From NCBI GenBank assembly GCA_021785065.1, contig JAJYGQ010000003.1:2470-66469 (forward strand): a DNA stretch of 64,000 nucleotides, given 5' to 3'. Within the stretch, counting starts at the first letter, position 1. Every line of letters starts with the position of its first letter. This document shows positions 1,128 to 51,637 of the stretch, piece by piece. The notes below the pieces were generated by a model that worked only from the letters and a program-made list of their open reading frames with translations, did no database searches and had not been told where the DNA came from. This stretch comes from a bacterium (GTDB taxonomy: Bacteria; Patescibacteriota; Minisyncoccia; Phycocordibacterales; JAKAEA01). A program made the position numbers and the translations under genes.

Positions 1128-2045
1128 ATGCATAAGGTTCGCATTACAATATACATGAGTGTGCTCGGGCTTCTGTTAGCGGGAGCAATTATGGCTCATT
1201 TTGAAGGTACGTCGATTGAAGACGTGCTCGCCTATGCTATTTTACTAAGTCATCCCGCCAGTTTTTCTTCGGCGCCACTTTCTACTTCGACGGTATCAAC
1301 TGAAGTGATGGCTACGAGTACTACAGCTACTACCAGCCCGTTTGTTTTTAGTAATACTACTGATAAGTCAAATATTATTTCTGCGACAGCAATTATTGAT
1401 CTCACTAATATGGAACGTGCAACGGTAGCAAACCTGCCGCCGCTCAAAGAAAATGTGTTACTTGATGCGGCGGCAGAAATGAAGTTAAACGATATGTTTA
1501 ACAACCAATACTTTGCTCACATATCGCCAAGTGGGGTGGGGCCGGGCGACTTGGCTTTGAAGGCTGGTTATAATTATGTGGTAGAGGGAGAAAATTTAGC
1601 AGAAGGAGATTTTACTAGTGCAACAAATCTTTTAAATGCGTGGATGGCGAGTCCGGGTCATCGGGCAAATATTCTTAATGTCCGCTACATAAATATCGGT
1701 GTGGCGGTGCGCCAGGGTATGTATCAGGGGCAGGAGGTGTGGATGGCGGTGCAGGAATTTGGTAAACCACTTTCTTCATGTCCAGTTATTAGTGCGGTCC
1801 TGCATCAGGAAATCATTACCAACCAAACCAAAGCAACAAGCCTTAGTCAACAGCTCAATACTATTAAACAAGAGCTCATGACTACGGCTACCGGCACTCC
1901 CGAAGAGAATAGTGTCTATAATCAAATTGCCCAGGATTATAATGGTGATGTGACTATTTATAATGCTGTGGTGGCCCGTCTTAAAGTAGAGATTCCCACG
2001 TATAATGACGAAGTGCAGGCATTTAATGCTTGCGTTAATAGTTAG
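1128..2045 (+). CDS. CAP/SCP/PR1-domain secreted protein with N-terminal TM anchor and Ser/Thr-rich linker
   Basis: Motif NAWMASPGHRANIL...IGVAV matches the CAP domain (YkwD-like). Confidence 0.7.
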   Translation: MHKVRITIYMSVLGLLLAGAIMAHFEGTSIEDVLAYAILLSHPASFSSAPLSTSTVSTEVMATSTTATTSPFVFSNTTDKSNIISATAIIDLTNMERATVANLPPLKENVLLDAAAEMKLNDMFNNQYFAHISPSGVGPGDLALKAGYNYVVEGENLAEGDFTSATNLLNAWMASPGHRANILNVRYINIGVAVRQGMYQGQEVWMAVQEFGKPLSSCPVISAVLHQEIITNQTKATSLSQQLNTIKQELMTTATGTPEENSVYNQIAQDYNGDVTIYNAVVARLKVEIPTYNDEVQAFNACVNS

Positions 2046-2066
2046 CTCGTGTAAGAATCTTATCGT

Positions 2067-2528
2067 ATGCAAAATAAAACTATTATTGTCTTTATTATTA
2101 TTTTGGTTGTTATTGTGGTGGGTATCGTAGCACTTACGAGTCTCAAACCAAGCGGGCCTAACTTAACTGCGTTCGCGCAGTGTATTGCAAAGAGTGGCGC
2201 TAAGTTTTACGGCGCGTTTTGGTGTCCGCATTGTGCAGCACAAAAGCAACTTTTTGGTGCCGCGGTTTCTTCGTTACCCTATGTCGAATGTTCAACGCCT
2301 GATGCTAACGGGCAAACAAAAGTATGTATTAATGAGGGAATAAAAGAGTACCCCACATGGATTTTTGCCGATGGAACTCGCGAGAGTGGCGTGCTGACGC
2401 TTGCTCAATTATCGGCAAAAACAGGCTGTGCGTTGCCGCAGGCGGCATCATCTACTGCTCCCGCGACGTCGCTCGGGATTGGACAGGCGACTATTGTTGG
2501 ATCTTCCACCTCGACCACAACTCCATAG
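2067..2528 (+). CDS. DsbA-like thiol:disulfide oxidoreductase (thioredoxin fold, CPHC), membrane anchored
   Basis: N-terminal TM, FWCPHC active site, S/T-rich tail. Confidence 0.7.
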   Translation: MQNKTIIVFIIILVVIVVGIVALTSLKPSGPNLTAFAQCIAKSGAKFYGAFWCPHCAAQKQLFGAAVSSLPYVECSTPDANGQTKVCINEGIKEYPTWIFADGTRESGVLTLAQLSAKTGCALPQAASSTAPATSLGIGQATIVGSSTSTTTP

Positions 2529-2554
2529 TGCCATTACTATAAAAATATCACGAC

Positions 2555-3154
2555 GTGATAAATTTCATTATAACTTTCTTTTCGCTCAGTACGCTCGTCG
2601 TCGATATAGCCATTGTGCTTTTTGTGGTGTGGTTGGGAGTGTGGTATCTAGGGTGGCGTTGGAATAGGGGAATGCAAGAATCTTCTCAAGCAGTTGATGC
2701 TCGAGTAGTTGAGCCGTTTCGTCCACTTGTGCGCTGGGTGAGCATTAATGCTGTGGGAATTGGTTTAATCGTCAGTGTACTTGCTGTTGTAGGCAGCCTC
2801 TTTTTCTCAAATGTTGTTGGTTTTGCTCCTTGTGAGCTTTGTTGGTGGCAACGAATTTGTATCTATCCGCAAGTAGTTATTTTTGCGTTGGCATTTTTCT
2901 ATGAATGTCGCGGTAAAGCTTTAGGGCCGGTATTTTCTATAAGCGGCGTGCTCTCATTGATTGCATTTGCCATTGGTGCCGTCCAATACTATAGCGCAAC
3001 ATTTAATACGAGTATTTTAGCAGCGTGCAGTGCGACGGGAGTTTCGTGTACAAAAACTTATTTTGTACAATTTGGGTATATCACTATTCCTATGATGTCA
3101 GTAACGTTGGCGGCTATACTACTTAGTATTGTTGCTGCACGTCGCTTCTCGTAA
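2555..3154 (+). CDS. disulfide bond formation protein B (DsbB/BdbC-like)
   Basis: Polytopic membrane protein with CELCWWQRICIYP (CxxC-QR-Y motif of DsbB) and a second Cys pair. Confidence 0.65.
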   Translation: MINFIITFFSLSTLVVDIAIVLFVVWLGVWYLGWRWNRGMQESSQAVDARVVEPFRPLVRWVSINAVGIGLIVSVLAVVGSLFFSNVVGFAPCELCWWQRICIYPQVVIFALAFFYECRGKALGPVFSISGVLSLIAFAIGAVQYYSATFNTSILAACSATGVSCTKTYFVQFGYITIPMMSVTLAAILLSIVAARRFS

Positions 3155-3776
3155 TGTAATGTCGTTACTGCTTTCTTTTATTTTGACCTTTGGTTACGTC
3201 GGTATTTTTATTGTCCTTTTTGCTGAGTCGGGATTTTTTTTAGGATTTTTCTTTCCGGGTGATTCATTACTTTTTACCGTTGGCTTGTTGGCGAGTGCCG
3301 GCCACCTCAGTCTCGCGGTCCTCCTGCCGGTGGCGGCGCTCGCCGCCATCTCTGGCGACTCATTTGGCTACTGGACCGGCGCGCGTCTCGGACGGTATTT
3401 TCTAGAACGTCATACTGGCCGGTTTCTCAAGCAGCGTTATCTCGACGACACCGAGAAATTCTTTGCTCGGTATGGTCGGGTGGCGGTGTTTCTTGCTCGT
3501 TTCATTCCCATTATCAGAACTTTTACCCCCATTTTCGCCGGTATTGGTGAAATGAACTACGGTATTTTTGTCATATATAATATTGTTGGTGGCTTATTTT
3601 GGACGGCTGGCTTACTGGTCCTTTCCTACTACCTTGGTCACATCTCGTTCGTACGGCACTACACATCATTTATTATTGCCGGTATCATAGTTGTATCACT
3701 CATTCCCGTTGCTCTCAGTTGGTTTCGAGTTTGGCGTCAGTACAAGCAAAAAAATCAATCACATGGACAACAATAA
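3129..3776 (+). CDS. DedA/TVP38-family membrane protein
   Basis: FFPGDSLLFTVGLLA ... typical DedA signature, multiple TM helices. Confidence 0.75.
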   Translation: MLLHVASRNVMSLLLSFILTFGYVGIFIVLFAESGFFLGFFFPGDSLLFTVGLLASAGHLSLAVLLPVAALAAISGDSFGYWTGARLGRYFLERHTGRFLKQRYLDDTEKFFARYGRVAVFLARFIPIIRTFTPIFAGIGEMNYGIFVIYNIVGGLFWTAGLLVLSYYLGHISFVRHYTSFIIAGIIVVSLIPVALSWFRVWRQYKQKNQSHGQQ

Positions 3777-4263
3777 CGCTCCTCAAAAATCGACCCGGGC
3801 TATTATATGGACAATAATTATTGTTCTTGTTGTAGTGGCGGCTATTTTTGCGGTACTGGTTAGTACGGGGGTACTTACTATTAACCATTCGTCGCCGGCC
3901 GCGCCAACAATCTCTCATTCTGTCTCAATGCCGAAGCAGGTTGCCACGCCATCTGCCCAAGCGAAACTTTCTCAGTGTCAAAGTGAGCTTGTAGCTCAGG
4001 CGAAAGCGAGTGCTGGCTCTATTGCTACAAATACTATTTTAGTAGTATTTACGCCAACGACGAGTTATAGTGCAGCGCAAAATATTTTAGCCTCTCTCGG
4101 CGCTTCGAGTACTGCCGTGGTAATGCCGAGCGTGTACGCGCGCAATCATCTCATTCAAGCGTCAGTGCTTTCTACCGATGAAATTTTAGATATTTGCACC
4201 CTTCGAGCAACTTCGACCGTACATTATGCAGGTTTCGACCAGCTTTTTTCATTACACCCATAA
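3763..4263 (+). CDS. hypothetical membrane-anchored protein
   Basis: ORF with internal start MDNNNAPQ followed by one TM helix; no recognisable domain. Confidence 0.4.
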   Translation: MDNNNAPQKSTRAIIWTIIIVLVVVAAIFAVLVSTGVLTINHSSPAAPTISHSVSMPKQVATPSAQAKLSQCQSELVAQAKASAGSIATNTILVVFTPTTSYSAAQNILASLGASSTAVVMPSVYARNHLIQASVLSTDEILDICTLRATSTVHYAGFDQLFSLHP

Positions 4264-14255: not shown

Positions 14256-16025
14256 ATGCAGATTCAAGAAACAATCACGACGCTCATCAAGCAAGCGCTA
14301 ATCGCTGTTGGTGCTGCTGCTGTTGACACAGAAATAACACTCGATCATCCGAGTGATTTAAAATTTGGTGACATTTCGACGAATGTGGCGCTCATGCTGG
14401 CAAAAAAACGCGGTGACAATCCCCAAGTGTTGGCAAAAAAAATCGCCGAAGCGATTGTGGCTGAGTTGGAAAGATCACCCAACGCATATTTAGAGAAGGT
14501 GAGCGTTGCCGGCGTCGGTTTTATAAATTTCTCTCTGTCGGAAAAATTTTTCCACGAATCGCTTGCGGAGATTTTGAAAAAAGGCGCCGACTTCGGCAAA
14601 AACGCCCAGCTCTTCAAGGAGAAAATTATCGTTGAATACACTGACCCCAATGCGTTTAAGCCCCTGCATATTGGCCACCTCATGAGCAATGCTATTGGCG
14701 AATCGCTCTCGCGCCTTACACAATTTGAAGGCGCCGAGGTGCGCCGCGCGACCTACGGTTCTGATGTGGGTCTCAATGTGGCTATGGCGGTGTGGGGTAT
14801 GCAAAAGCTCGCTGCGGAAAAATTTTCTGGCGCTCCCACCGCGCAAATATTGGCCGAGCTCCACAAACTGCCGCTCTCGGAAAAAATCGCCTTTGTCGGC
14901 GCGGCCTATGTGCACGGAGCGCAGACCTACGAGCAGGACGAATCGGCAAAAAAAGAAATCACCGAGCTTAATCATAAAATTTATACCCACGCCGACCCGG
15001 TCGCCAATGAATTTTACGTTTTCGGTAAGCGGGCCAGCGTCGATCATTTCAACGAAATGTTCGCGCTGCTCGGCTCAAAATTTGATCATCAAATCTGGGA
15101 GAGCGACATTGCCGCGTTTGGTGAAGAGATTGTCGCGCTTGGTTTGGAACGGGGCATTTTCGAGCGCAGCGACGGGGCAGTAATTTATCCCGGCGAGAAA
15201 AAACCTGACGCTAAAGCGCGCGGACTCCACAATCGTGTTTTCATCACCTCGCACAACATCCCGACCTACGAAGCCAAAGAGCTCGGTCTCACTAAGAAAA
15301 AATTCGAGCTACACGATTTCGACACGTCGGTAGTTATCACCGCCAACGAGCAAAATGATTATTTCAAAGTAGTGCTCGCGGCCCTTGCTGAAATATATCC
15401 GGAAATCGCGCGGCGCACGCGTCACCTCGGTCACGGCATGATGCGTTTTGCCGAAGGTAAGATGAGCTCGCGCACCGGCAACATTGTAACGGGCGAATCG
15501 CTCCTCGCCGAGCTCGCCGCGCGGGCCCTGGAAAAAATGGAAGCAAAAGATGAGAAGATTGCTAACCTTATAGCCGTTGCCGCGCTCAAGTATGCGGTGC
15601 TTAAGCAGTCTATCGGTCGCGATGTGGTTTTTGACAAAGAGCAATCCATTTCATTTGAAGGCGACTCAGGTCCCTATTTACAGTACACCTTCGTGCGCAC
15701 GCAAGCGTTGCTAGCTAAAGCTGAAGAGCAGGGGATTGAACCGGTACTTGGCGAGTTGCCGCAAAACGCAAGCACACTCACGCATCTTCTTTATCGTTTT
15801 CCGGAAATGGTGGAGCGCGCCGCCGCCGACTACGCGCCGCAGTATGTTGCGACATTTCTCACCACCATCGCCGGCGAATTCAACAGCTGGTACGCCGCTG
15901 AAAAGATTATCGACCCAAGCAACAAAAGTGCATCGCAAGCAAAACTCGCCCTCGCCGCCGCCGTCGGCCAGGTACTCCGCAACGGCCTCTGGCTCCTCGG
16001 CATCAGTGCGCCGGAGAGGATGTAA
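14256..16025 (+). CDS. argS: arginyl-tRNA synthetase
   Basis: Class I HIGH motif PLHIGHLMSNAIG, ArgRS-length, DALR anticodon-binding C-terminus. Confidence 0.9.
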   Translation: MQIQETITTLIKQALIAVGAAAVDTEITLDHPSDLKFGDISTNVALMLAKKRGDNPQVLAKKIAEAIVAELERSPNAYLEKVSVAGVGFINFSLSEKFFHESLAEILKKGADFGKNAQLFKEKIIVEYTDPNAFKPLHIGHLMSNAIGESLSRLTQFEGAEVRRATYGSDVGLNVAMAVWGMQKLAAEKFSGAPTAQILAELHKLPLSEKIAFVGAAYVHGAQTYEQDESAKKEITELNHKIYTHADPVANEFYVFGKRASVDHFNEMFALLGSKFDHQIWESDIAAFGEEIVALGLERGIFERSDGAVIYPGEKKPDAKARGLHNRVFITSHNIPTYEAKELGLTKKKFELHDFDTSVVITANEQNDYFKVVLAALAEIYPEIARRTRHLGHGMMRFAEGKMSSRTGNIVTGESLLAELAARALEKMEAKDEKIANLIAVAALKYAVLKQSIGRDVVFDKEQSISFEGDSGPYLQYTFVRTQALLAKAEEQGIEPVLGELPQNASTLTHLLYRFPEMVERAAADYAPQYVATFLTTIAGEFNSWYAAEKIIDPSNKSASQAKLALAAAVGQVLRNGLWLLGISAPERM

Positions 16026-16608
16026 AAAATTCTTGTTTAAGAAATTCGGTGAATTGGGTCATTTCAGCTTGAAACAATTTGAGGTCTCTCGATATTTTTT
16101 CAGGAGGTATTTTTTTGCGTATGTCATCTGGTTTACCACGTGGGGCCCGTTGAGGGAGAATACGTACACTACTCAAACCCTTCGCTTCCATACCTAATCG
16201 CACGTCTGATTTTCTCTGTTTGTAGAATTTTACCAATAACTCTTTTAATCTCCCGGTTTCTTTTCGGTTCTCTTTTTCGGCATCTAGTTCCTTTTGCCTA
16301 AGTTCTTTTTTCTCTGCGGCATTTAGGGTGTTTTCACCAGTTTCAAAATTAATTTTACGTTCTAATTCTTGATAGCGCGTGTCTTCATCTAACATCTCGC
16401 CTATATCTACCCACGGATATGGCAACCCCCAATCCTCGTGCCCTTCGCAAGAGGCATAGGTCTTAAAACCGTGTGCTTGTAAATATATAATAGTTTCGCG
16501 GATTCCGGGATCTATTTCCATACCTAAACCATCAGTAATTTGTTCTATTTTTTTACTAATAGTATCTAGCAGTTGCTGTTTGGGGTTTTTCCCTTGTGGA
16601 CCTTCCAT
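16003..16608 (-). CDS. hypothetical protein
   Basis: About 200 aa ORF starting MEGPQGK; Glu/Lys-rich coiled region; no family recognised. Confidence 0.4.
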   Translation of the reverse strand: MEGPQGKNPKQQLLDTISKKIEQITDGLGMEIDPGIRETIIYLQAHGFKTYASCEGHEDWGLPYPWVDIGEMLDEDTRYQELERKINFETGENTLNAAEKKELRQKELDAEKENRKETGRLKELLVKFYKQRKSDVRLGMEAKGLSSVRILPQRAPRGKPDDIRKKIPPEKISRDLKLFQAEMTQFTEFLKQEFFTSSPAH

Positions 16609-16640
16609 ACCTATAATTATACAGCAAAAATTCGTAAAAA

Positions 16641-19600
16641 ATGCTAGTATTTGAGCCACGTATGGCTCAGTCTGACGAACAGGATAAAAAAACAATAAAG
16701 AGCCCCATTGCCGAGCGCGAGGAGGCGACACTGGCGTTTTGGCGTGAGCGGGACATTTTTCAAAAGACGCTCGATAAAAAATCTCTCGTTAAAGACGGCA
16801 AAGAGTGGGAATTTATTTTTTACGATGGACCGCCGTTTGCTACGGGCGAGCCGCACTATGGGCACATTTTGGCGGGTACTATAAAGGACGTCATTCCGCG
16901 TTATAAAACGATGTGCGGCTTTCATGTGCCGCGCCGGTGGGGCTGGGATTGTCATGGTTTGCCAATTGAGAATTTGATTGAGAAAGAGCTCGGGCTTTCG
17001 ACGCGCAAAGACATTGAAATGTATGGCATAGAAAAATTTAATGCCGCGGCGCGGGCGAGCGTTCTGCGCTACGACACGCTCTGGAAAGAAATTATTCCGC
17101 GCACTGGCCGCTTCGTGGATATGGATCATTCCTACGTAACGATGGACTGGCGTTACACCGAAAGTATTTGGTGGTCGTTTAGCGAACTCAATAAAAAGGA
17201 ACTCGTCTATCAAGGTTTCAAGCCGATGCATTTGTGTCCGCGTTGCGAAACGACACTTTCTAATTTTGAAGTCGGTCTTAATTATAAAGAGGTGACGGAT
17301 ATTTCGGTGTATGTGAAGTTTGAGCTGGTTGATGAGCCCGGCACATTTTTGCTGGCCTGGACGACAACGCCGTGGACTTTGCCGGGCAACGTGGCGCTCG
17401 CGGTAAATCCGAAAATAAAATACGTGCGCGTAAAAATAGAAACAGAGAAGGGGACGACGCTGGCCATTGTAGCTAACGAGCGTCTAAGTGCAATAAAAGA
17501 AACGTACACAATCGAAGAAGAATTTTCCGGAAAAAAAATTGTCGGCAAAAAATACAAGCCAGTGTTTCCGTACTATGAGAACGCGGCAGAGATAGAGCAC
17601 AAGGAAAATTTTTATACGGTGCAGGCGGCCGACTTTGTAACGACTGAAGATGGGACGGGTGTTGTGCATATTGCGCCAGGGTTTGGCGAAGATGATTACA
17701 ACTTGTCGCAAACGGCTGGGCTGCCGTTTATTCAGCATGTTGGCGTGGATGGGCGCTTTAAAAAAGAGGTGACGGATTTTGCGGGCCAGCAGGTCAAGCC
17801 GCGGCCGACGGCCGAGGAGCCGAATGCCCACCAGCGAGCCGATGTTGAAATTATCAAATATTTGGCCGCACACGGAGCTCTTTTTGCGAAAGAAAAAATT
17901 ACTCACAGCTATCCGCACTGCTGGCGCTGCGACACGCCGCTTCTGAATTACGCGACGAGCTCATGGTTTGTGAAGGTGGCCGACATAAAAAAGAAGTTGG
18001 TGGCGGAGAATAAAAAGGTGCGCTGGGTGCCGGAGGAGATTGGCCAGGGCCGCTTCGGTATGTGGTTGGAAAACGCGCGCGACTGGGCGGTGTCGCGTTC
18101 GCGTTTTTGGGGCGCGCCGTTGCCGGTGTGGCGTTGCGAGGAGTGTGGCACGTTTGAATTTATCGACTCTGTTAAAACGCTTTCTGAAAAATTGAAGCGT
18201 AATGAGTATTTTTTAATGCGGCACGGTCAAGCAGAGAGTAATGTGGCGAACGTTATTGTTGCTGATGAAAAGGCGGAGGATCCGTTAACAGCTGAAGGAG
18301 AGCAGCAAGCGGCTGACGCGGCAAAAAAATTTTCCGAAACGCTCGCTGGCAAAAAAATTGATGCAATTTTCTCTTCGCCGTTTGAGCGGACACACCAAAC
18401 AGCGGAAATTGTGGCGCGTGAACTTGGCTTTGAGGGAAAAATTGAAATTGATGAGCGTCTACGGGAACTCGGGGCCTTCGCGTTTGAAGGGGAGAGTCGT
18501 GAGAAACGCAACGAAGCGTATCGCGAAGGACGCGTTCCATCTAACGACGAAACACAGACGCATGAAGAAAAACGCATCGCCGAATTTTTCCACGATATTG
18601 ACGCACGTTTCAAAGGTAAAACAATTTTAGTGGTGAGTCACGCCGCGCCGCTTGCGGCAGCATTGCGTCTCGTTGAACCGCTCGGTGAGAAGAGCGTGGG
18701 CTTTATGGACAATGCTGAAATTCGCCCACTCCCATTTGTTGCTCTGCCACACGATGCTCATTTTAATCTCGATTTGCATCGGCCCTACATCGACGCCGTG
18801 GAGTTTGCTTGCTCGAAAGAAAATTGCCGTGGCACGATGAAGCGCGTGCCGGATGTTTTCGACACCTGGTATGAATCCGGCTCGATGCCCTTTGCCTCGA
18901 TTCATTTTCCTTTTGAACAAAAGTCTTCGAAAAAACCACCGCGCTTTCCCGCTGACTTTATCGCCGAGGGTCAGGATCAAACGCGCGGTTGGTTTTACAC
19001 CCTGCTCATTTTAAATACGGCGCTGTTTGGCCACGCTCCGTACAAAAACGTGGTGGTTAACGGTATTATTCTCGCCGAAGACGGCCAAAAAATGTCGAAG
19101 CGTCTCAAAAATTATCCCGACATTCGTTTTGTGTTGGATAAGTATGGGGCCGACGCATTGCGCTATTATCTGCTATCGTCACCGGTTGTGGAGGCTGAAG
19201 ACTTGGCTTTTTCTGAAAAAGGTCTCGATGAAGTGGTCAAAAAAGTTATCAATCGGCTCGATAATGTGTACGCGTTCTATGCGCTCTATGCAGATAAAAA
19301 TATTGCGCCGAGCGCCAATTCGCCCCACGTTCTTGATCGTTGGATTTTGGCGGCTCTCTCTAATATGTTGGGTGAGGTGACAGGAGAATTAGATAATTAT
19401 CGCCTTGATGCCGCTGCACGACCATTTGCGCAGTTTGTTGACGATCTCTCAACTTGGTATATTCGCCGATCGCGCGATCGTTTCAAAAATACTGACACTG
19501 CTCGTGACGCTATCGCTACCACGCGTTTTGTGTTGCGCGAGCTTGCAAAAGGCCTTGCGCCTTTTATGCCCTTTCTCGCTGAGGATTTGTATCAGAAAGT

Positions 19601-20165
19601 AAAAATGGAAAATGATCAGGAGAGTGTGCACCTTGAACGGTGGTCAGATGTTTCGGGAGGCGATCAAAAACTACTAACAGCAATGAACGCAACCAGAACG
19701 CTCGTGTCGCTGGCGCTTGAAAAACGGGCGGCGGCAGGGATAAAAATTCGCCAGCCACTCGGCGAGCTTTCAGTGAACGATTCGTTTGCCGCGGTGGCCG
19801 ACGACGAGGGCCTGGCCGAATTGGTGCGCGATGAAGTGAATGTGAAGAAAATTTTCAAAAACACGGAGCAAGCGGAGCCGGTTGTGCTGAATACAGCCAT
19901 CACACCTGAGCTCAAAAATGAAGGGATCGCTCGCGAGTTTATCCGCTCGATTCAAGATCTGCGCAAAAACGCTGGCTTGCGACCCAATCAAGAAATTACA
20001 CTTATCGTTGAAACTGCATCAGCCGGCCGAAAAATTATCGAAACACATGCTGCGGATATTCGCCAGGTAATCCGCGCCAAGAAAATTCTCTTCAAAATCG
20101 CAGAATCCGCGACGAATGAATTTTCTATTGATGATTTTGTTTTTAAAGTACGTTGGGAATTGTAA
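16641..20165 (+). CDS. ileS: isoleucyl-tRNA synthetase (type 2) carrying an inserted histidine-phosphatase (PGAM-like) domain
   Basis: HYGHILAGTIKD (HIGH) and KMSKRLKN (KMSKS); CP1 editing domain; about 180-aa in-frame insert (about 18201..18740) with RHGQAESN and VSHAAPL motifs between WRCEECG and HRPYID. Confidence 0.9.
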   Translation: MLVFEPRMAQSDEQDKKTIKSPIAEREEATLAFWRERDIFQKTLDKKSLVKDGKEWEFIFYDGPPFATGEPHYGHILAGTIKDVIPRYKTMCGFHVPRRWGWDCHGLPIENLIEKELGLSTRKDIEMYGIEKFNAAARASVLRYDTLWKEIIPRTGRFVDMDHSYVTMDWRYTESIWWSFSELNKKELVYQGFKPMHLCPRCETTLSNFEVGLNYKEVTDISVYVKFELVDEPGTFLLAWTTTPWTLPGNVALAVNPKIKYVRVKIETEKGTTLAIVANERLSAIKETYTIEEEFSGKKIVGKKYKPVFPYYENAAEIEHKENFYTVQAADFVTTEDGTGVVHIAPGFGEDDYNLSQTAGLPFIQHVGVDGRFKKEVTDFAGQQVKPRPTAEEPNAHQRADVEIIKYLAAHGALFAKEKITHSYPHCWRCDTPLLNYATSSWFVKVADIKKKLVAENKKVRWVPEEIGQGRFGMWLENARDWAVSRSRFWGAPLPVWRCEECGTFEFIDSVKTLSEKLKRNEYFLMRHGQAESNVANVIVADEKAEDPLTAEGEQQAADAAKKFSETLAGKKIDAIFSSPFERTHQTAEIVARELGFEGKIEIDERLRELGAFAFEGESREKRNEAYREGRVPSNDETQTHEEKRIAEFFHDIDARFKGKTILVVSHAAPLAAALRLVEPLGEKSVGFMDNAEIRPLPFVALPHDAHFNLDLHRPYIDAVEFACSKENCRGTMKRVPDVFDTWYESGSMPFASIHFPFEQKSSKKPPRFPADFIAEGQDQTRGWFYTLLILNTALFGHAPYKNVVVNGIILAEDGQKMSKRLKNYPDIRFVLDKYGADALRYYLLSSPVVEAEDLAFSEKGLDEVVKKVINRLDNVYAFYALYADKNIAPSANSPHVLDRWILAALSNMLGEVTGELDNYRLDAAARPFAQFVDDLSTWYIRRSRDRFKNTDTARDAIATTRFVLRELAKGLAPFMPFLAEDLYQKVKMENDQESVHLERWSDVSGGDQKLLTAMNATRTLVSLALEKRAAAGIKIRQPLGELSVNDSFAAVADDEGLAELVRDEVNVKKIFKNTEQAEPVVLNTAITPELKNEGIAREFIRSIQDLRKNAGLRPNQEITLIVETASAGRKIIETHAADIRQVIRAKKILFKIAESATNEFSIDDFVFKVRWEL

Positions 20166-22852: not shown

Positions 22853-24172
22853 ATGGCACAAGAAAACAATATGGAAAAAGTTATTTCGCTGGCCAAGCGG
22901 CGCGGCTTCATCTATCAGGGGTCGGAAATTTATGGCGGCCTAGCCGGTACCTGGGATTACGGCCCACTTGGTGTAGCGTTGAAAAATAACTTAAAGACGC
23001 TCTGGTGGCAGATGTTTGTGGAAGAGCGCGAAGATATGTACGGCGTCGACGCGGCGATTTTGATGAATCAAAATGTGTGGAAGGCGAGCGGTCACGTTGG
23101 TGGTTTTTCCGATCCGCTGGTGGAGTGTTCTAAATGTCACCATCGTTTTCGGGCTGACCATTTGACCGATTTGAAAAAGTGTCCCGATTGCGGTGGGGCG
23201 CTTGGTGATGTTCGCCAATTTAATATGATGTTCAAGACGCACGTGGGGGCGGCCGAAGATGAAGGGGCGGTTTCGTATCTGCGACCGGAAACGGCGCAGG
23301 GTATGTTTGTGAATTTTAAAAATATCATCGATTCATTTCATCCCACCCTGCCGTTTGGTTTGGCGCAAATTGGCAAAGCGTTTCGTAATGAAATTGCGCC
23401 GCGCGATTTTCTGTTCCGGGCGCGCGAATTTGAGCAAATGGAAATTGAATATTTTGTGCGGCCGAATGATTGGGAGCGGTTTTTTGAGGAATTTCGCCAG
23501 CTTATGTGGCAGTGGGTGGAGCGTATTGGCCTACGGCGCGATCGTGTGTATGAGCTTGAGGTGTCGGCTGAAGATCGGGCTCACTATTCGAAGCGCACGA
23601 TTGATTTTGAATTTGAGTATCCGTTTGGGCGCAAGGAGCTCTATGGTTTGGCGTATCGCACCGACTACGACTTAGGCGCGCATCAAAAGGGGAGCGGTGC
23701 TTCGCTTGAATATTTTGATGAAGCGACGAAGGAAAAATTCGTGCCGCATGTTATCGAGCCATCGCTTGGCGTGGATCGCACAGTGCTCGCGATTTTAACT
23801 GATGCCTATACGGAAGACGAGCTCGGCGGCGAGCCGCGCAGTTTTTTGAAACTTTCGCCCGCCATCGCGCCGGTGACCGTTGCGGTATTTCCGCTTTTGA
23901 AAAATAAACCGCCGTTGGTAGAGAAGGCGAGGGAAGTATACGCGCTCTTGCGCGAAGCAAAAAAAACTGCCGGCGGCCGCGCTCGCATTGCTTTCGATGA
24001 TAACGGCAATATCGGCAAGCGTTACCGCCGCCAAGACGAAATTGGCACGCCGTGGTGCGTCACAATTGATTTTCAAACGCTTGAGGATGAAACGGTCACG
24101 CTACGCGACCGCGACAGTGGTAATCAAGAACGCCTGAAAATTTCCGAACTTTCTGGTAGACTCTTGGGATGA
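22853..24172 (+). CDS. glyQS: glycyl-tRNA synthetase (dimeric class II form)
   Basis: RRGFIYQGSEIYGGLAGTWDYGPLG diagnostic N-terminus; class II motifs. Confidence 0.9.
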   Translation: MAQENNMEKVISLAKRRGFIYQGSEIYGGLAGTWDYGPLGVALKNNLKTLWWQMFVEEREDMYGVDAAILMNQNVWKASGHVGGFSDPLVECSKCHHRFRADHLTDLKKCPDCGGALGDVRQFNMMFKTHVGAAEDEGAVSYLRPETAQGMFVNFKNIIDSFHPTLPFGLAQIGKAFRNEIAPRDFLFRAREFEQMEIEYFVRPNDWERFFEEFRQLMWQWVERIGLRRDRVYELEVSAEDRAHYSKRTIDFEFEYPFGRKELYGLAYRTDYDLGAHQKGSGASLEYFDEATKEKFVPHVIEPSLGVDRTVLAILTDAYTEDELGGEPRSFLKLSPAIAPVTVAVFPLLKNKPPLVEKAREVYALLREAKKTAGGRARIAFDDNGNIGKRYRRQDEIGTPWCVTIDFQTLEDETVTLRDRDSGNQERLKISELSGRLLG

Positions 24173-37964: not shown

Positions 37965-40900
37965 ATGAAATTTTTGCAGCAGTGTGTGTTACTTGGTGTT
38001 GTGGCGGTGTGCGCTAGCGTGCTTGGTTGGTCACCGGCGTATGCGGCTGGCACGGTACCGGTTACGGGCGATATGGCTACTGACACCGTATGGACGGCCG
38101 ATGATGGCGTCTATGTGGTTTCCAGTGTCGTCACTATCGACCCGGGGGCGACGCTTTATATTGAACCAGGTACGATAGTAAAATTTTCTCAAGGCGCAAG
38201 TCTCAATGTCCTCGGGGCATTAAATGCCGCGGGCAATCCAGTAAATCCGGTGTACTTTACTTCGTTTGCCGACGACGCTGTTGGCGGTGACACAAATGCT
38301 GACGGTTCGAATTCGTTGCCATCAGCTTCCGATACTTGGGACATTAACTTTCTCCACGCTTCGTATTCAACGATTTCTGGCGCGGTACTCCGCTATAGTA
38401 GCGGCGGAATATTTAATCTGGATTCTCGTTTGTCGCTCGCCAGTACCAGCGTAGCCTTTATGGATAATCCAATTTCAGTTTCGCAGGGAAAACTCAATCT
38501 CAGCAATGTTCTCTTTTCTCATATGTCTCAGGGCGCGCTATGGATATATGCCACCAGTAGTGCGACGCTTGCTTCAACCACGGTTACCAACAGTACAACA
38601 GGGGCGGTGATGGTATACAACAATAGCAATCTTTCGGCGCGTCAGCTTTCTGTGGTAGGCGAGCAAAATGGTCCGGCCCTTTCGGTATACAATCTCTCGA
38701 CCGCTACCTGCGAGCGGTGCGCACTTTCCGATAACGCTACTTCGGTGGTGGTGTATTCGGGAAGTAATCTCGCGCTCAATCATTCGTCCATTGAAAATGC
38801 TACCGGCACCGCCGCTACCGATTTCGAGCTGTATGACCCGGCGTGGAATACGTCGCTACCCAGACATTCGCAGGCTACGTTGTCCGCGACAACGCTGCGC
38901 GGCGGCAAGGACGGCATCATTGTTTTTGGACCGGTAACGTTGCGCCTAGCCACTACAACTATAGAAAATTTTTCCGACGACGGTATTCAAGCTTACGATG
39001 GAGCAACGCTTGTGGGATCTTCGCTACGGGTGAGCAAAAATAAAAATGCTGGTTTAGAAATGTGGTCGACGGTTAACGGGTCGGTGCGCTACAGTGATAT
39101 TTCTGATAATGGTCAATTTGGCATATTGAGTCGGACGGCCACGCCTTTTGCCGCTGTGCAAAATTGGTGGGGAAGTGCTAGCGGGCCCCATCACGCCACG
39201 CTCAATACTAACGGTTCCGGTGACACTGTTTCGGATAACGTCACCTTTTCTCCGTGGCTTCAGGATAAAACGCCTCCGGACCCCGTGGACCCGCCGCCCT
39301 GTTGCTCAAGCGTTCTCTTTATTCCTGGTATTGAAGCGAGCCGATTGTATGCAACCTCAAGCACGCTACTTGGTCGCCTAACCAAAAGAGCGGGTACGAA
39401 AGAAATTCAACTTTGGGAACCAGGATTTACGACGCCCATTAATAAACTTATGCTCGATGAATCCGGTGCCAGTCTCAATTCGGTGTATACCAAAGATATT
39501 ATTACGACCACCAACGAACTGTTGCCAATGTCTAACATAGACATATATAAAACTTTTTCTGGCGTGCTCACCACTCTTGCTACTGAAGGGGCGATTGCGT
39601 CGTGGCAAGCTTACCCTTATGATTGGCGACTTGATCCGCAGTCGCTTGTCGAAAATGGCACACAACTCGCCGCAACGCTGTCTCGGTTAGAGCCGATGGT
39701 TGAGTCGCTGGCCGCGAGTTCAAAAACCGGGAAGGTGACTATTGTTGCCCATAGTAACGGTGGCATACTCGCAAAACTTTTATTGAGTAAGTTGCAAGCC
39801 GAGGGAAAAAGTCAGCTCGTGGATACATTAGTGTTCGTTGCGGTGCCGCAATTAGGGACACCGATAGCTATACCCGCTCTTCTTTCAGGGTATGGTCAGC
39901 AAATTGGCATGGGTTTTATTTTAAACGCCACCACCGCTCAGCATCTTGCTCAAAATATGCCTGCCGCATACAGCTTTATTCCTTCAGCGGCATATTTTCA
40001 TACCACGACATCACCTGTCATTTTTGATCCTTCGCTCAAGACGATTTCTGATTTGTATCAAAATTACGGTCCCGTTATTTCTGATGCTACGTCTCTCGCA
40101 AAATTTTTAACAGCAACAACAAACACAAAACGTTCCTCACCAATAGTGACCCCGGCAAATAGTACACTGCTGGCCGCGGCGACTAGGTTGCACGTCTCGC
40201 TTGATAGTTGGCAGGCACCATCTGGTGTCAATGTTATTACGGTGGCCGGTGTGGGTATTGATACACTTTCTGCTACACGTTATTACGCGCGCCCACCGTC
40301 GTTTTGGGGTAACTTATGGGGAGCTTCGGCTACTATAGACATGTCTCCCCAAATGACATCACTCGGCGACAATACCGTGGTAACACCAAGCGCCGCGGCT
40401 ACCATCCCCAAGTCGTTTACGTACTACATTGATTTAGCCGCGTACAACAATAAGAGCGGAAAAAATCGCGGGCATGCTGATATTTTAGAAGCCGAACCAA
40501 CCGACGAGCTTCTCATAGATATCATACGGGGTTCGGTGGGCACAGCGGCGTCACTCTCGCCAGTATTACCTCATTTTGTTTCCACAACTATTCCCGCCAA
40601 CTACCTTACCAATGCTAGTAATACAAAAACAGAAGAACAAATAAGCGTCCATTCACCGGTGGTGTTAAATGTATACGATGATCAAGGGCGACACACTGGT
40701 CCTGTTAAAAATATTACTGCGATAGATTCAGCGCTTATTCCCACCGAAAGCAAAATTCCCAATAGCTACTATCTACCCTTCGGGGAAGGGCAATACGTAG
40801 GGGTGCCTTTAGGAACGAAAGGAAAAATTGTCCTTTCGGGAACAGCGGCAGGATCAGCCACGCTTGATATTACAGCGTATGGTACGACCACGCAGTTTTC

Positions 40901-41207
40901 CGATATTCCCGTGATGAAAACATCTATTGCTACGGTAGATCTTGGCAGCACTACGCCATCACTTGATCTTGACTACGACGGCGACGGTACTATTGATGTC
41001 GTCTTTCCTCCAACGCCCGCCGGCGCTACAGCATATCCAGCCGCAGTTCAAAAACTTATCAGTGCGTTTTCTCGAAACCGAGCACATCATAAAAATATGC
41101 TAGGAAAATTAGAAAGCATCATTGAGACCATTAAAGAAAAATTTGACGATCATGTTGTTTCGTCTGACCATCCTGACCGCGCTGTTCCCACTACCTTGGA
41201 CCATTGA
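37965..41207 (+). CDS. large secreted protein: right-handed beta-helix (pectate-lyase-like) N-terminal region fused to an alpha/beta-hydrolase (lipase/esterase, GHSxG) domain
   Basis: Signal peptide; repeated NxxxS/Gxxx beta-helix-like repeats over about 450 aa; nucleophile elbow VTIVAHSNGGILAKLLL. Confidence 0.6.
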   Translation: MKFLQQCVLLGVVAVCASVLGWSPAYAAGTVPVTGDMATDTVWTADDGVYVVSSVVTIDPGATLYIEPGTIVKFSQGASLNVLGALNAAGNPVNPVYFTSFADDAVGGDTNADGSNSLPSASDTWDINFLHASYSTISGAVLRYSSGGIFNLDSRLSLASTSVAFMDNPISVSQGKLNLSNVLFSHMSQGALWIYATSSATLASTTVTNSTTGAVMVYNNSNLSARQLSVVGEQNGPALSVYNLSTATCERCALSDNATSVVVYSGSNLALNHSSIENATGTAATDFELYDPAWNTSLPRHSQATLSATTLRGGKDGIIVFGPVTLRLATTTIENFSDDGIQAYDGATLVGSSLRVSKNKNAGLEMWSTVNGSVRYSDISDNGQFGILSRTATPFAAVQNWWGSASGPHHATLNTNGSGDTVSDNVTFSPWLQDKTPPDPVDPPPCCSSVLFIPGIEASRLYATSSTLLGRLTKRAGTKEIQLWEPGFTTPINKLMLDESGASLNSVYTKDIITTTNELLPMSNIDIYKTFSGVLTTLATEGAIASWQAYPYDWRLDPQSLVENGTQLAATLSRLEPMVESLAASSKTGKVTIVAHSNGGILAKLLLSKLQAEGKSQLVDTLVFVAVPQLGTPIAIPALLSGYGQQIGMGFILNATTAQHLAQNMPAAYSFIPSAAYFHTTTSPVIFDPSLKTISDLYQNYGPVISDATSLAKFLTATTNTKRSSPIVTPANSTLLAAATRLHVSLDSWQAPSGVNVITVAGVGIDTLSATRYYARPPSFWGNLWGASATIDMSPQMTSLGDNTVVTPSAAATIPKSFTYYIDLAAYNNKSGKNRGHADILEAEPTDELLIDIIRGSVGTAASLSPVLPHFVSTTIPANYLTNASNTKTEEQISVHSPVVLNVYDDQGRHTGPVKNITAIDSALIPTESKIPNSYYLPFGEGQYVGVPLGTKGKIVLSGTAAGSATLDITAYGTTTQFSDIPVMKTSIATVDLGSTTPSLDLDYDGDGTIDVVFPPTPAGATAYPAAVQKLISAFSRNRAHHKNMLGKLESIIETIKEKFDDHVVSSDHPDRAVPTTLDH

Positions 41208-43047: not shown

Positions 43048-43857
43048 AGCTCCTACCTGAATATGTTGATCAAAAAATTCCACTGCCGCTCGTAAAGGCC
43101 CTTAACAACGGCTTTTATGTCCGCGGCAACGCGGATTTTTTGTTTTCCGAACGATTGTTGCTTGAAAAATACATTCCGTCGCGGCACGACTTTCTAGCAT
43201 CGGCAACGATGTTAGAGGGGTCTTTATAGTGTCGTAGACGGGCAGGTAAAACAATACTGTTATTGAGAATCTTTGATTCCAGATAACAGAGTATATTAAT
43301 TGTGGTTCTTACATTTCCTGACGGGAATGTAAGGGCATATGGTGGATGCCTTGGCTTCAAAAGGCGATGAAGGACGTAGCATAACTGCGATAAGCTTCGG
43401 GGAGGTGTCGAGCAACCGTCAATCCGAAGATTTCCGAATGAGGAAACTCCCGCGTTTTAACGCGGACGTTTGCGCTTGACGCAAACGAGTATACCCAGGG
43501 AAGTAAAACATTTCAGTACCTGGAGGAATAGAGACCAATCGCGCAAGCGAATGGAATTTCCTAAGTAGCGGCGAGCGAAAAGGAATGAGCCCAAACCCGA
43601 TTCCACCTTTGCTGTTTGACGAGAGTCGAATAGCGGAGGTGCGATCGGGGGTTGTAAGGCGGTAACGTCACTTTTATAGTGAGAAGAGTTACAAAATGAG
43701 ATAGTAGCGGAACGTGCTGGAAAGCGCGGCCCCAGAGGGTAATGGCCCCGTACGCGAAACTAACTCATCTCTTTTGTTACCGTTCTTGAGTACCTCGAGA
43801 CACGAATGGCTCGGGGGAATCCAGCGGAACTAACCGCTAAGGCTAAATACTTTTGAA

Positions 43858-43897
<40 letters not shown>

Positions 43898-43967
43898 CAG
43901 CCCGGTGAGGGCGGTGAAATAGACCTGAAACCATATGCCTACAAGGAGTCAGAGCGGGGTACCACTT

Positions 43968-44385
43968 TGCGTGGTATGACGTTCTCAAAATAAAATTAAG
44001 AAAATTTATCTTTCATTCATCAAAATTTTATTGCTGAATATATACACTTTTATTGTGTACTATGTTTATGTAATACAAAGTTTGATGGATACAACCTTCT
44101 ACATAGGTTATACGAATTCAATTGATCGAAGATTGAAAGAACATAACTATAGTAAGGGTCGCTTTACCAGGAAACATATTCCCTGGAAACTTGTTTACTA
44201 TGAAGCATTTAACGACAAATTTCTAGCGAAACGTCGAGAAAAGATGCTCAAAGAAACCAGTAGGGCTTGGCAAGAATTACGAAAACGTCTCGGTGTTAAT
44301 TATCGAGAAAAAAAATCGCAAACAAATCCAGCCCAAGATATATTATTTTCTAAGTAAGTTTATAATTGAGGATGTCATAGTGCCT
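43968..44385 (+). mobile_element. about 415-nt AT-rich insertion in 23S helix-25 region (IVS-like or intron) carrying a GIY-YIG ORF
   Basis: Flanked by a perfect 13-bp helix GGGGTACCACTTT / AAAGTGGTACCCC; E. coli-equivalent position about 540-550, the classic IVS site. Confidence 0.6.
44031..44357 (+). CDS. GIY-YIG family nuclease (small stand-alone type) encoded inside the 23S insertion
   Basis: YVYVIQS...FYIGYTNSIDRRLKEHN plus downstream Arg/Glu catalytic residues. Confidence 0.75.
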   Translation: MLNIYTFIVYYVYVIQSLMDTTFYIGYTNSIDRRLKEHNYSKGRFTRKHIPWKLVYYEAFNDKFLAKRREKMLKETSRAWQELRKRLGVNYREKKSQTNPAQDILFSK

Positions 44386-46099
44386 AAAGTGGTACCCCGT
44401 CATGGCGTGCCTATTGAAGAATGAGCCAACGAGTTCTAGCATCCTGCGGGCTAAAGGCGCGAGCCTGGAGCCGCAGGGAAACCGAGTGTGAATAGCGCGT
44501 TTGTAGGATGCTAGAGACCCGAAGCCAGAGCGATCTACCCATGTGCAGGGTGAATGGTGCCGAAAGGCACCAGGAGGCCCGAACCGATAAGCCGTTCAAC
44601 ACTTTCGGATGACATGTGGGTCGAAGTGAAAAGCTAATCGAGCCTGGTAATAGCTGGTTCTCTCCGAAATAGCTTTTGGGTTAGCGTCGAATGTTCCCAG
44701 GGGGGGTAGAGCACTGGAAGGTCTCGACAGGGCGAAAGCTCGCGAGACCTATCAAACTCCGAATACTCTTGGTTAAAAGTTCGGCAGTTAGACTGTGGGG
44801 GCTAAGCTCCATTGGTCAAAAGGGAAACAGCCCAGATCTCCAGTTAAGGTCCCTAAATTTATGCTAAGTGCACTTAAGGTGGTAGAAATTCTCTAACAAT
44901 GAGGAGGTTGGCTTAGAAGCAGCCATCCTTTAAAGAAAGCGTAACAGCTCACTCATCGAGAGTTTCCGCGCCGAAGATAATCGGGGCTAAGCATAGTACC
45001 GAAACTGAGGACATTATTTTTCTTCGGAAAAATAGCGTGGTAGGAGAGTTTTCGTGTTGCGATGAAGGCGAAGGGGTGACCCACGCTGGAGCGTCACGAA
45101 GTAAGAATGTTGGCACAAGTAACCGCAATCAGTGTGAAAACCACTGACGCCGAAAGATCAAGGTTTCCTTGGCAATGACAATCAGCCAAGGGTTAGTCGG
45201 TCCTAAGGGGATGGCGAACGCCGCACCCGATGGATACATGGTTAATATTCCATGACTTTTGTGTTAGGCGATGAGAGGACGGAGTGCAGTATCCCGAGCA
45301 CCTTATTGGATTGGTGTTCGTGTCGTGAGAGTGGCGTGTAGGAAAATCCGCACGCGGCCGTAAGGCACATTCAAGCGAAGCGAAGCTGTTGAGGGCGACC
45401 TCGACCAATTCGGGAAAGCGCGCTTCCAAGAAAAGTCTCTAAGCTTACTAACACAGAAACCGTACCGCAAACCGACACAGGTGATCAGCTCGAGTAGAGC
45501 AAGGCGAACGAATGAGAAGTCCCCAAGGAACTCGGCAAAAAAGCGGCCGTAACTTCGGAATAAGGCCTGCCTATCGCAAGATAGGCCGCAGCTAAAGTAT
45601 GCTTGGCAACTGTTTACCAAAAACACAGCTCCCTGCGAACTCGAAAGAGGATGTATAGGGGGTGACACTTGACCAATGCCAGAAGGTCAACTATCGGCGG
45701 TGCGATTATATCAAGCTGACTGGTACAAGCCCTGGTGAATGTCGGTCGTAACTATAACGATCCTAAGGTAGCGAAATTCCTTGTCAGGTAAGTTCTGACG
45801 CGCACGAATAGTGTCATGACTGAGCAACTGTCTCGGGGACCCGTTCGGTGAAAATACAATACCGGTGAAGATGCCGGTTACCTGCAGCTAGACGAAAAGA
45901 CCCCGGAAGCTTTACTGCAACTTGGTATTGAGCGTACGTTGTTGATGCGTAGCATAGGTGGGAGAGGTTGAGGGCATGATCTCGGTTGTGCCGGACTCGT
46001 CAGTGAAATACCACTCTTCATAGGTGTACGTTCTAACCCGCGCGGCAAAAACGCGCGGAAACAGTACTAGGCGGGCAGTTTTAGTGGGGCGCTATCCTC

Positions 46100-47059
46100 A
46101 ACTTTGGGCGCCTCAGATTTGGTAAATGGTTCAAACGACCCTCCACCAAGTCAAATTATAAAATCAGGGGGACTTTAGTCCGTAAGGGCTATCGAAAAGT
46201 TAGCTATATGCTGGAACATCCGAGTATCTTTATGTACTCGCTCAAGTTTTTTGAGCAGTGAAAATCGTAAAGTGCGGACAATCAGCAGGAAATGCTCCTA
46301 TTCTAATATTTTTATTCAGCATAGAAGCAAATCCTCAGAGACTACACGCTAACCTCCGCGAAAGCGGATGATGATATAGTCCGATCTTTGTGGCGACACA
46401 AAGCTTACTACATATAGTAAGACCATTAATGAACACTAAGGAAATTCGGGAGTACAAAAACACTCTCAAACTTACTGACATTCAAAAATCTATTCTCGTC
46501 GGAACATTGTTGGGCGATGGACATTTAGAGACGCAAGATAACGGTAAAACGTATCGTCTCAAAATTGAACATCAGTTAGCCCAGCAAGACTACACGGAAT
46601 GGCTTCACAGCCACTTCAAAGAGTGGGTTAGAAATGGAATGTATAGAAAAGTAAAATCACAAGGTAAAGAATATGTCGGATTTACCACATATTCGCACGG
46701 CGCCTTCAGATTTTACGCTCAGCAATTTTACACTGAGAAAAAGAAACATATTCCCAGAATGATCAGTAAATTGCTAAATCCATTAGTTGTTGCGATCTGG
46801 TTTATGGATGATGGTTCGTGGAAATCAGAAAAACACGAAACCTTCATAATACATACGCTCGGATTCACAAAAGAAGATCTTACGTTGATACAAGATTCGT
46901 TTAGAAAATTGTTCAATATAGAAACTTCACTTCATCGACAAAAAGAAAGATATTGGAGGTTGTATATACGATCAAGTTCCGCAAAAGAATTTGAAAAACT
47001 AATACAACCTTACACATCACTCGTTGATTCTATGAAGAAAAAGATGGGTAACAATAAGC
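46100..47059 (+). mobile_element. group I intron in 23S rRNA (domain V, before CTAAAGAGTAACGGAGG) encoding a LAGLIDADG endonuclease
   Basis: Exon sequence resumes exactly at CTAAAGAGTAACGGAGGAG; intron contains AGAGACTACACG (P7/J8-7-like); ORF stop codon lies in the downstream exon. Confidence 0.7.
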
Positions 47060-47070
47060 CTAAAGAGTAA
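46390..47070 (+). CDS. double-motif LAGLIDADG homing endonuclease
   Basis: ILVGTLLGDGHL and VVAIWFMDDGS motifs about 100 aa apart. Confidence 0.85.
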   Translation: MATQSLLHIVRPLMNTKEIREYKNTLKLTDIQKSILVGTLLGDGHLETQDNGKTYRLKIEHQLAQQDYTEWLHSHFKEWVRNGMYRKVKSQGKEYVGFTTYSHGAFRFYAQQFYTEKKKHIPRMISKLLNPLVVAIWFMDDGSWKSEKHETFIIHTLGFTKEDLTLIQDSFRKLFNIETSLHRQKERYWRLYIRSSSAKEFEKLIQPYTSLVDSMKKKMGNNKPKE

Positions 47071-47856: not shown

Positions 47857-47889
<33 letters not shown>

Positions 47890-50185: not shown

Positions 50186-50196
50186 CTTGTTTTTAG

Positions 50197-51573: not shown

Positions 51574-51637
51574 TTGATTTTCTTGGCTATTTGGGGTAGG
51601 ATAGCCACGTTACCACTTCCATTATTTCTACACCCTC

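Follow-up and report, generated by a model that had tools for sequence, protein, structure and literature searches.

The DNA analysed here, referred to below as the window, is a stretch of 64,000 nucleotides (nt) from contig JAJYGQ010000003.1 of a patescibacterial genome assembly (GCA_021785065.1). It contains ileS, the gene for a type-2, eukaryote-like isoleucyl-tRNA synthetase (IleRS), and this gene carries an additional, complete domain of the histidine phosphatase superfamily with intact catalytic residues, nested in the subdomain known as connective peptide 3 (CP3). The whole protein, of 1174 amino acids (aa), is encoded by a single uninterrupted open reading frame (ORF). An earlier note, made from the letters of the sequence alone, had placed an in-frame module of about 180 aa between the motifs WRCEECG and HRPYID of the synthetase. 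Alignment to solved IleRS structures, and to a close ortholog that lacks the insert (P0037), confirmed this arrangement. The features of the gene and their coordinates are collected in Table 1.

The host synthetase

The window protein matches the TIGR00392 ileS model with 861.8 bits (cutoff 621.4) and solved IleRS structures with E-values of 1e-198 to 1e-218. When its structural model was compared by Foldseek with 8c8v, 8wnd and 1ile, the target-normalised template modelling (TM) scores were 0.81-0.89. Besides the overall fold, the protein has in common with the type-2 enzymes of Thermus thermophilus (1ILE) and Priestia megaterium (IleRS2, 8C8V) the HIGH and KMSKS signatures, the CP1 editing domain and the C-terminal DUF5915 domain, and its CP3 zinc knuckle resembles that of T. 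thermophilus.

Conservation of these elements was examined in 120 homologs. H72 and G74 of the HIGH signature do not vary, and H75 varies hardly at all; K817 and K820 of the KMSKS signature are invariant. Residues W240 through W245 are also invariant, which argues that the editing site is intact, and a further editing motif, GTGVVHIAP, is present in the window protein and conserved among the homologs. With the HIGH, KMSKS and editing motifs conserved and the model superposing on type-2 structures, the IleRS portions of the protein look fully functional. The mupirocin-resistance enzymes MupA and MupB (NF000257 and NF000258) were considered and rejected: the respective scores, 675 and 708 bits, are below the cutoff of 1900 and show general similarity among type-2 IleRS only.

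The true start of the synthetase is probably M8 (nt 16662), because P0037 begins at the equivalent position. Between the genes for arginyl-tRNA synthetase (ArgRS) and IleRS there is a minus-strand ORF (16003-16731, 201-242 aa) for which Pfam gave no match. Its longest version overlaps the annotated IleRS start, and this supports the start at M8.

The insertion point in CP3

In yeast IleRS, CP3 comprises residues 459-526, and residues 453-465 line the pocket for tRNA A76 and reveromycin (PMC7955072). The topology of CP3 varies among IleRS structures, and the T. thermophilus enzyme has a zinc motif in this subdomain (PMC7191050). In human IARS1, CP3 is the docking surface for LARS1 (PMC13439101).

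In HMMER alignments to solved IleRS, the step from residue 516 to residue 710 or 711 of the window protein corresponds to the step from residue 490 to residue 498 of the human and yeast cytoplasmic enzymes. In none of the solved IleRS is there a domain within CP3: about 193 residues of the window protein stand where these structures have about 7. The earlier note had given the extent as 18201-18740; the place was right, although the domain with its linker is slightly wider (Table 1). The insertion point lies about 25 residues, or one beta-hairpin, downstream of the CP2-CP3 linker ARDWAVSRSRFWG. By the published domain boundaries, the phosphatase is nested in a peripheral and structurally variable subdomain.

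The insert-less ortholog P0037 (973 aa) is 72% identical to the window IleRS in its N-terminal part and 58% in its C-terminal part, and its locus has the same gene order as the window, i.e., the genes for IleRS, RecO, a DUF11/CLIPPER protein and glycyl-tRNA synthetase (GlyRS). At the exact insertion point it has a 12-aa linker, SGKEPKNRKGER. So precise an absence indicates that the insert is dispensable for the IleRS fold. A search of 10 kb downstream found no stand-alone His_Phos copy beside P0037, and no second His_Phos gene was found in the window.

To follow individual residues, we used an alignment of 75 full-length orthologs, consisting of the window protein and 74 of the loci described below. 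H713, P715, Y716 and D718, with which CP3 resumes after the insert, are present in all 75. The zinc-knuckle cysteines C499, C502, C724 and C729 (18135-18146 and 18810-18827) form a complete set in 33 of them. The other 42 have non-Cys patterns, the most frequent of which contain no cysteine at all; the zinc site around the inserted domain has thus undergone repeated loss.

Catalytic residues and fold of the nested domain

The family assignment proposed in the earlier note is borne out by profile searches. His_Phos_1 of Pfam (PF00300) matches aa 524-681 of the whole protein with 97.4 bits (E=1.1e-27; gathering cutoff 21.7), and the excised segment scores 102 bits (E=4e-29). The RHG and second-His motifs (LMRHGQAESN and VSHAAPL) are where the note had read them.

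The catalytic residues are strongly conserved among the orthologs. R527 and H528 are present in all 75 and G529 in 72, with Ala in the remaining 3. The heptad R527/H528/N534/R583/E609/R645/H667 reads RHNRERH in 72 of the 75, and single conservative changes occur in the other three. R583 and E609 align with R59 and E83 of PhoE, respectively (PhoE numbering by our own count on the 1h2e sequence). The insert varies in length from 172 to 218 aa, and its mean pairwise identity is 37.6%, as opposed to 49.9% for the IleRS body. By these measures the insert is evolving faster than the body that surrounds it, yet it is under clear constraint, and the conservation pattern places the phosphatase catalytic machinery under purifying selection.

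The full-length AlphaFold2 (AF2) model has a mean predicted local distance difference test score (pLDDT) of 91.2 and a predicted TM score (pTM) of 0.83. Blocks within the insert are mostly at 88-97, the lowest being aa 681-690 with 77. Residues 514-715 modelled alone gave a pLDDT of 93.1 and a pTM of 0.90. The structural neighbours of the insert found by Foldseek are PhoE, PspA, CobC, TIGAR and GpgP (E about 1e-11, TM 0.63-0.73, probability 1.00), with no single best match among them. The AF2 and Foldseek results thus predict an alpha/beta fold of the phosphoglycerate mutase (PGM) type.

No NCBIfam equivalog (dPGM, CobC, PspA, SixA, GpmB) comes near its cutoff for the insert. The best match is dPGM_arch, a small archaeal-type dPGM model (79-80 bits; cutoff 225), followed by PRK07238, and pgm_1 scores 29 bits (cutoff 81.7) over the first ~70 residues only. 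A true phosphoglycerate mutase (dPGM; TIGR01258, NF038349 and others) was rejected, as all equivalog scores are far below cutoff. In addition, the segment after E609 follows the PhoE-like pattern E-h-x-x-G-x-[FY]-E-G-K and not the ERHYG of dPGM. The description 'PGAM-like' in the earlier note therefore holds at the level of the superfamily, but not for the mutases themselves, and the fold neighbours are small phosphatases. With scores so far below the cutoffs, the substrate is not readable from homology.

Table 1. Position of ileS and of its landmarks in the window (aa numbering from the annotated start; counts refer to the alignment of 75 orthologs)
Feature	Residues (aa)	Position (nt)	Strand	Remarks
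ileS, type-2 eukaryote-like IleRS	1174 in all	16641-20165	+	nested domain included
HIGH signature, HYGH	72-75	16854-16865	+	aminoacylation site; motif position
CP1 editing domain, threonine-rich motif TTTPWTLP	241-248	17361-17384	+	motif position
CP2-CP3 linker, ARDWAVSRSRFWG	479-491	18075-18113	+	equivalent of yeast 453-465
CP3 zinc knuckle, first half, WRCEECG	497-503	18129-18149	+	C499/C502
Nested His_Phos_1 domain with linker	518-710	18192-18770	+	~193 aa; boundaries from alignments
RHG motif within LMRHGQAESN	527-529	18219-18227	+	R527, predicted nucleophile H528, G529
R583, in SSPFERT	583	18387-18389	+	putative second phosphate-binding Arg; 75/75
E609, in DERLRE	609	18465-18467	+	putative proton-donor Glu; 74/75, Asp in one
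H667, in VSHAAPL (aa 665-671, nt 18633-18653)	667	18639-18641	+	putative second catalytic His; 75/75
CP3 resumption: HRPYID (aa 713-718, nt 18777-18794) and second knuckle pair		18777-18827	+	C724/C729
KMSKS signature, KMSKR	817-821	19089-19103	+	motif position

Distribution of the fusion

The occurrence of the fusion was analyzed by a tblastn scan of one genome per GTDB species, with a 252-aa segment spanning the junctions as the query. At least 241 species-representative genomes were matched. The best 80 of these all include the insert, because the matches cover the whole query. With one exception they are labelled as metagenome-assembled genomes of Patescibacteria, or Candidate Phyla Radiation (CPR), the labels including Taylor-, Zambryski-, Nomura-, Yanofsky-, Adler-, Wolfe-, Colwell-, Doudna- and Gracilibacteria, among others. 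The exception is labelled Spirochaetia and lies on an 8-kb contig, for which reason it is probably mis-binned. In a separate search with the full-length protein, PF00300 was found in 119 of the 120 closest homologs. The survey of relatives that the earlier note had suggested thus returned the same insertion in both sets. By its sequence distribution, the fusion is a lineage-wide trait of Patescibacteria and not peculiar to the source genome. It is conserved over much of the CPR, being present in at least 80 checked species-level genomes and probably in several hundred overall.

In one relative with a window-like ArgRS...IleRS...RecO synteny (L002), two genes (1937-4022) lie between ArgRS and an IleRS fragmented by frameshifts. 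One encodes a 419-aa protein with a weak match to HTH_OrfB_IS605 (TnpB-like), and the other encodes Cas1.

The same domain at other sites and in other synthetases

An exhaustive HMMER search of 1.84 billion cluster representatives, for which only the insert served as query, gave 6117 matches at E<=1e-3, of which 369 were at E<=1e-10. Among the best 150 of the 6117, IleRS, either complete or as fragments, account for about 95 and have the domain at the CP3 site seen in the window (site A); free-standing proteins of ~170-220 aa, 37-44% identical, account for about 50. The best 150 also include tandem two-domain proteins and synthetases with the domain at other positions. The only identified hosts among them are class Ia aminoacyl-tRNA synthetases; two proteins have no family match in the remainder of their sequence.

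Within IleRS, Pfam and NCBIfam place further His_Phos copies at a second CP3 position after LHKxxVD (site A2) and after the motif WFESGSMPYA..HYPF (site B). Copies also occur directly before the anticodon-binding domain (site C), as in P0130, P0149, P0195, P0227, P0231 and P0263. IleRS with several such sites come, by name, from Gracilibacteria, Peregrinibacteria and Peribacteria. A valyl-tRNA synthetase (ValRS), P0129, carries four copies, of which one lies in the CP2 region and the other three form a tandem array in the loop that corresponds to CP3, and another, P0244, carries one after its WFSSG motif. An ArgRS, P0267 (TIGR00456, 405 bits), has a C-terminal copy. Judged from these domain assignments, the same His_Phos subfamily has been placed repeatedly in class Ia synthetases, i.e., in at least four IleRS loops, in homologous loops of ValRS and at the ArgRS C-terminus, sometimes as several copies. 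A neighbour-joining tree of 163 domain copies was star-like, with long branches and poor resolution, and permits coarse statements only: the site-A2 copies group, the ValRS copies group, and free-standing forms are interleaved with IleRS inserts.

The relatives of P0130 from Gracilibacteria and Peregrinibacteria (P0285-P0369) are IleRS of 1200-1860 aa with further nested enzyme domains. These include a HAD phosphatase at site B, after the WFESG motif, in P0345; P-loop kinases of the AAA_33/AAA_18/Zeta-toxin type at site B or C in P0346, P0361 and P0369; a serine hydrolase (alpha/beta hydrolase) at site B in P0335; and the nuclease-like DUF559 within CP1 in P0361. GNAT is listed in several IleRS of this type, and a Y1 transposase is listed for one (precomputed Pfam only). 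An IleRS of the Paceibacteria type, P0117, carries both GNAT, in the CP1/editing region (aa 285-415), and His_Phos.

In this lineage GlyRS, too, has insertions that vary. It has 439 aa in the window (22853-24172), as against 522 aa in the relative L085 (5802-7370), where Pfam reports a 'GlyRS_ins_1' match.

Comparison with known proteins

The insert has its fold in common with PhoE (1H2E), PspA (4IJ5/6), CobC (6E4B), TIGAR (3E9D) and the GpgP Rv2419c (4PZ9). With the branch-1 small phosphatases it shares the catalytic R-H-G, N, R, E and H as well as a size of ~190-200 aa, but sequence identity is only 20-27%. It also differs from them in being nested in another enzyme, with the usual C-terminal tail of the phosphatase replaced by a return into CP3.

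A precedent for an accessory enzyme domain nested in a patescibacterial IleRS is the NCBI-curated family NF040702 (ileS_w_GNAT). The window protein scores 319 bits against this model, whose cutoff is 1999, and has no GNAT Pfam match. Moreover, the GNAT of P0117 is in the CP1/editing region, whereas the His_Phos domain of the window protein is in CP3.

Fusions of His_Phos_1 to other enzymes are represented by RNase H/acid phosphatase (PRK07238, Rv2228c type) and by 6-phosphofructo-2-kinase/fructose-2,6-bisphosphatase. These are end-to-end fusions with other partners, in contrast to the loop-nested domain of the window, although the kinase and His_Phos pairing of the second recurs in the Gracilibacteria IleRS. 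Possible analogues come from the healing of tRNA 3' ends, in which the HD domain of the E. coli CCA-adding enzyme and the T4 Pnkp kinase/phosphatase are involved. The idea common to them is that a phosphoesterase (HD in the former, HAD in the latter) is attached to an enzyme whose tRNA must have a clean 3' end. The likeness to the IleRS insert would be one of concept only, as the HD and HAD folds differ from that of the insert.

Full-text literature searches aimed at this fusion yielded no publication that describes a histidine phosphatase in an aminoacyl-tRNA synthetase, be it IleRS or another. Hundreds of these proteins are present in public databases with automatic domain calls, and one is named by JGI 'isoleucyl-tRNA synthetase/phosphohistidine phosphatase SixA/...GNAT'. 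A frequent NCBI name is only 'class I tRNA ligase family protein', and with so generic a name both functions are easily missed by automated annotation. As far as we can tell, the architecture is visible in databases but unstudied. That aminoacyl-tRNA synthetases can carry accessory domains is familiar from eukaryotes; to our knowledge, such domains are uncommon in bacteria. A second enzyme that has its catalytic residues intact and is nested in the catalytic body of a synthetase is unusual. Its recurrence at several loops of IleRS, ValRS and ArgRS argues for selection over accident.

Possible functions of the nested phosphatase

The reading we favour, to which we give somewhat less than an even chance, is that the gene product is a bifunctional IleRS-phosphatase in which the phosphatase serves aminoacylation. 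It would consist of a normal type-2 IleRS with an autonomous, catalytically competent histidine phosphatase looped out of CP3. The domain would act as a phosphomonoesterase via a phospho-His528 intermediate, with R527, R583 and H667 binding the phosphate and E609 acting as the acid. The activity would have been selected for its service to aminoacylation, and not as that of an unrelated housekeeping enzyme. The link to aminoacylation is favoured because every identified host among the best 150 matches is a class Ia synthetase, because several copies can occur in one synthetase, because the HAD fold has been convergently recruited and kinase modules co-occur, and because the domain is inserted after the linker lining the pocket for the tRNA end. 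Coupling of the phosphatase to charging, if real, would amount to an unrecognised quality-control step for tRNA or nucleotides in organisms that cannot yet be cultured alone.

What the domain might act on is more doubtful still. One suggestion, which we regard as rather unlikely in so specific a form, is that it cleaves off a terminal phosphate whose presence would block or perturb charging. Candidate targets would be a 2'- or 3'-phosphate on the tRNA 3' end or, near the active site, a phosphorylated nucleotide that arises as a by-product or acts as an inhibitor. This suggestion is prompted by the insertion one beta-hairpin past the linker lining the A76 pocket and by the Gracilibacteria relatives, which add a P-loop kinase or HAD phosphatase at neighbouring loops. 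An extension of it, also unlikely in our estimate and if anything the more so, is that class Ia synthetases of CPR acquired a third catalytic centre acting on the tRNA acceptor end or on a nucleotide linked to aminoacylation, and that P-loop kinase, HAD phosphatase or GNAT modules accompany the phosphatase in some lineages. Were this true, the synthetase would be a combined machine for charging and for tRNA repair or counteraction of toxins in episymbiotic, genome-reduced organisms.

Several observations weigh against a role in aminoacylation, and most of them suit a different explanation, namely that an ordinary small-metabolite phosphatase or mutase is hosted in a permissive loop of an essential, constitutive gene. 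In tiny genomes such a fusion would give co-expression and have no functional tie to tRNA charging. The nearest fold relatives of the insert are metabolite phosphatases (PhoE, phosphoserine phosphatases, CobC, TIGAR and glucosyl-3-phosphoglycerate phosphatase), the best NCBIfam match is the small archaeal-type dPGM model, and we know of no member of the histidine phosphatase family that acts on RNA ends. Free-standing homologs of ~190 aa exist, and they are 37-44% identical to the inserts and interleaved with them in the tree. Unrelated enzymes, i.e., the alpha/beta hydrolase at site B, DUF559, and GNAT in CP1, also occupy IleRS loops, which suggests general permissiveness; the loops may simply be landing sites. 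The close ortholog P0037 has lost the insert cleanly. The net charge of the insert has a median of -4 (-10 in the window protein) and is basic in only 14 of the 75 orthologs; this acidic surface gives no sign of an RNA-binding face and would speak mildly against direct tRNA binding. CP3 is, furthermore, peripheral (PMC7191050) and, in the human enzyme, a protein-docking surface (PMC13439101). On the other hand, the identified hosts among the best 150 matches are all IleRS, ValRS or ArgRS, with no other essential protein among them, and up to four copies in one ValRS are hard to explain through co-expression alone. The convergent recruitment of a different phosphatase fold (HAD) into IleRS and the low scores of all metabolic equivalog models also count against a hosted metabolic enzyme. 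We regard it as quite possible, if short of probable; such an enzyme may fill a 'missing' step in metabolic reconstructions of CPR. The variability and peripheral position of CP3, and its docking of LARS1 in human IARS1, could also be taken to mean that the insert is a non-catalytic module, i.e., that it senses a phosphate ligand, provides a docking surface or buttresses the structure of CP3, and half of the orthologs are without the CP3 zinc site, for which the insert might compensate structurally. This we consider improbable, since pseudo-enzymes normally lose catalytic residues and here 72 of 75 orthologs keep the whole set, nucleophile His and acid Glu included, as does every copy of the multi-copy proteins inspected; P0037, in turn, functions without the insert.

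The remaining explanations deny that the domain is a settled part of the synthetase. An assembly chimera or a gene pair masked by a frameshift is possible a priori in metagenome assemblies, and the relatives L001 and L002 do lie on low-coverage long-read contigs and are fragmented by frameshifts. We give this almost no credence. The ORF is continuous, GC content is 0.48-0.52 across the insert without anomaly of composition, frameshift or stop, and three contigs encode the identical 1174-aa protein. A stop-free frame of 1000-1291 aa with the same architecture is found in 71 of the 80 species-representative loci, most of the shorter ones ending at a contig edge, and all but one of the 120 nearest homologs have this architecture. 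The fusion is thus old, and it is genuine, as the earlier note had judged from the lack of intein-like boundaries. An intein was rejected because the N-junction residues K519, R520 and N521 offer no nucleophile and HN followed by Cys, Ser or Thr is absent from the C-junction: the conserved PHN (703-705) is PHD in the window protein, and the residue after it is mostly E, D, K or R, not C, S or T. The PGM-type fold also disfavours an intein, and Pfam (E<=0.01) detected no Hint/intein family in the window protein. A selfish or mobile in-frame element in a wider sense, either intein-like or a domain-level parasite spreading among synthetase genes, would suit the occurrence of homologous domains at many sites in three synthetases, the tandem intragenic copies and the presence of nuclease-like DUF559 and a Y1 transposase (in precomputed Pfam annotation) among the cargo of Gracilibacteria IleRS. 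However, neither a Hint/intein nor an endonuclease signature was found in or beside the insert, and its junctions and composition are those described above. The site-A inserts are orthologous and divergent (~38% identity) class-wide, with conserved synteny, which fits vertical inheritance, and their catalytic residues are under purifying selection. We therefore consider such an element very improbable.

Other features of the window

The 23S ribosomal RNA (rRNA) gene (43319-48004) is 4686 nt long, compared with 2925 nt for the Rfam model. Within it lies a group I intron (RF00028, 77.9 bits) at 46133-46403, and an ORF for a LAGLIDADG_2 homing endonuclease (46390-47070, 226 aa, E=1.6e-43) adjoins or overlaps this intron. 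Intron and ORF account for ~1 kb of the excess length, and a further ~700 nt may stem from a second insertion. The rRNA genes are not linked, and their order is unusual: 23S-5S (43319-48184) is followed after ~6.8 kb by 16S (54956-56562), the two being separated by protein-coding ORFs (48223-54643).

Positions 37965-41207 encode a protein of 1080 aa in which right-handed beta-helix/NosD repeats are combined with a lipase domain like that of lecithin:cholesterol acyltransferase (LCAT). This protein is possibly a surface or host-interaction enzyme.

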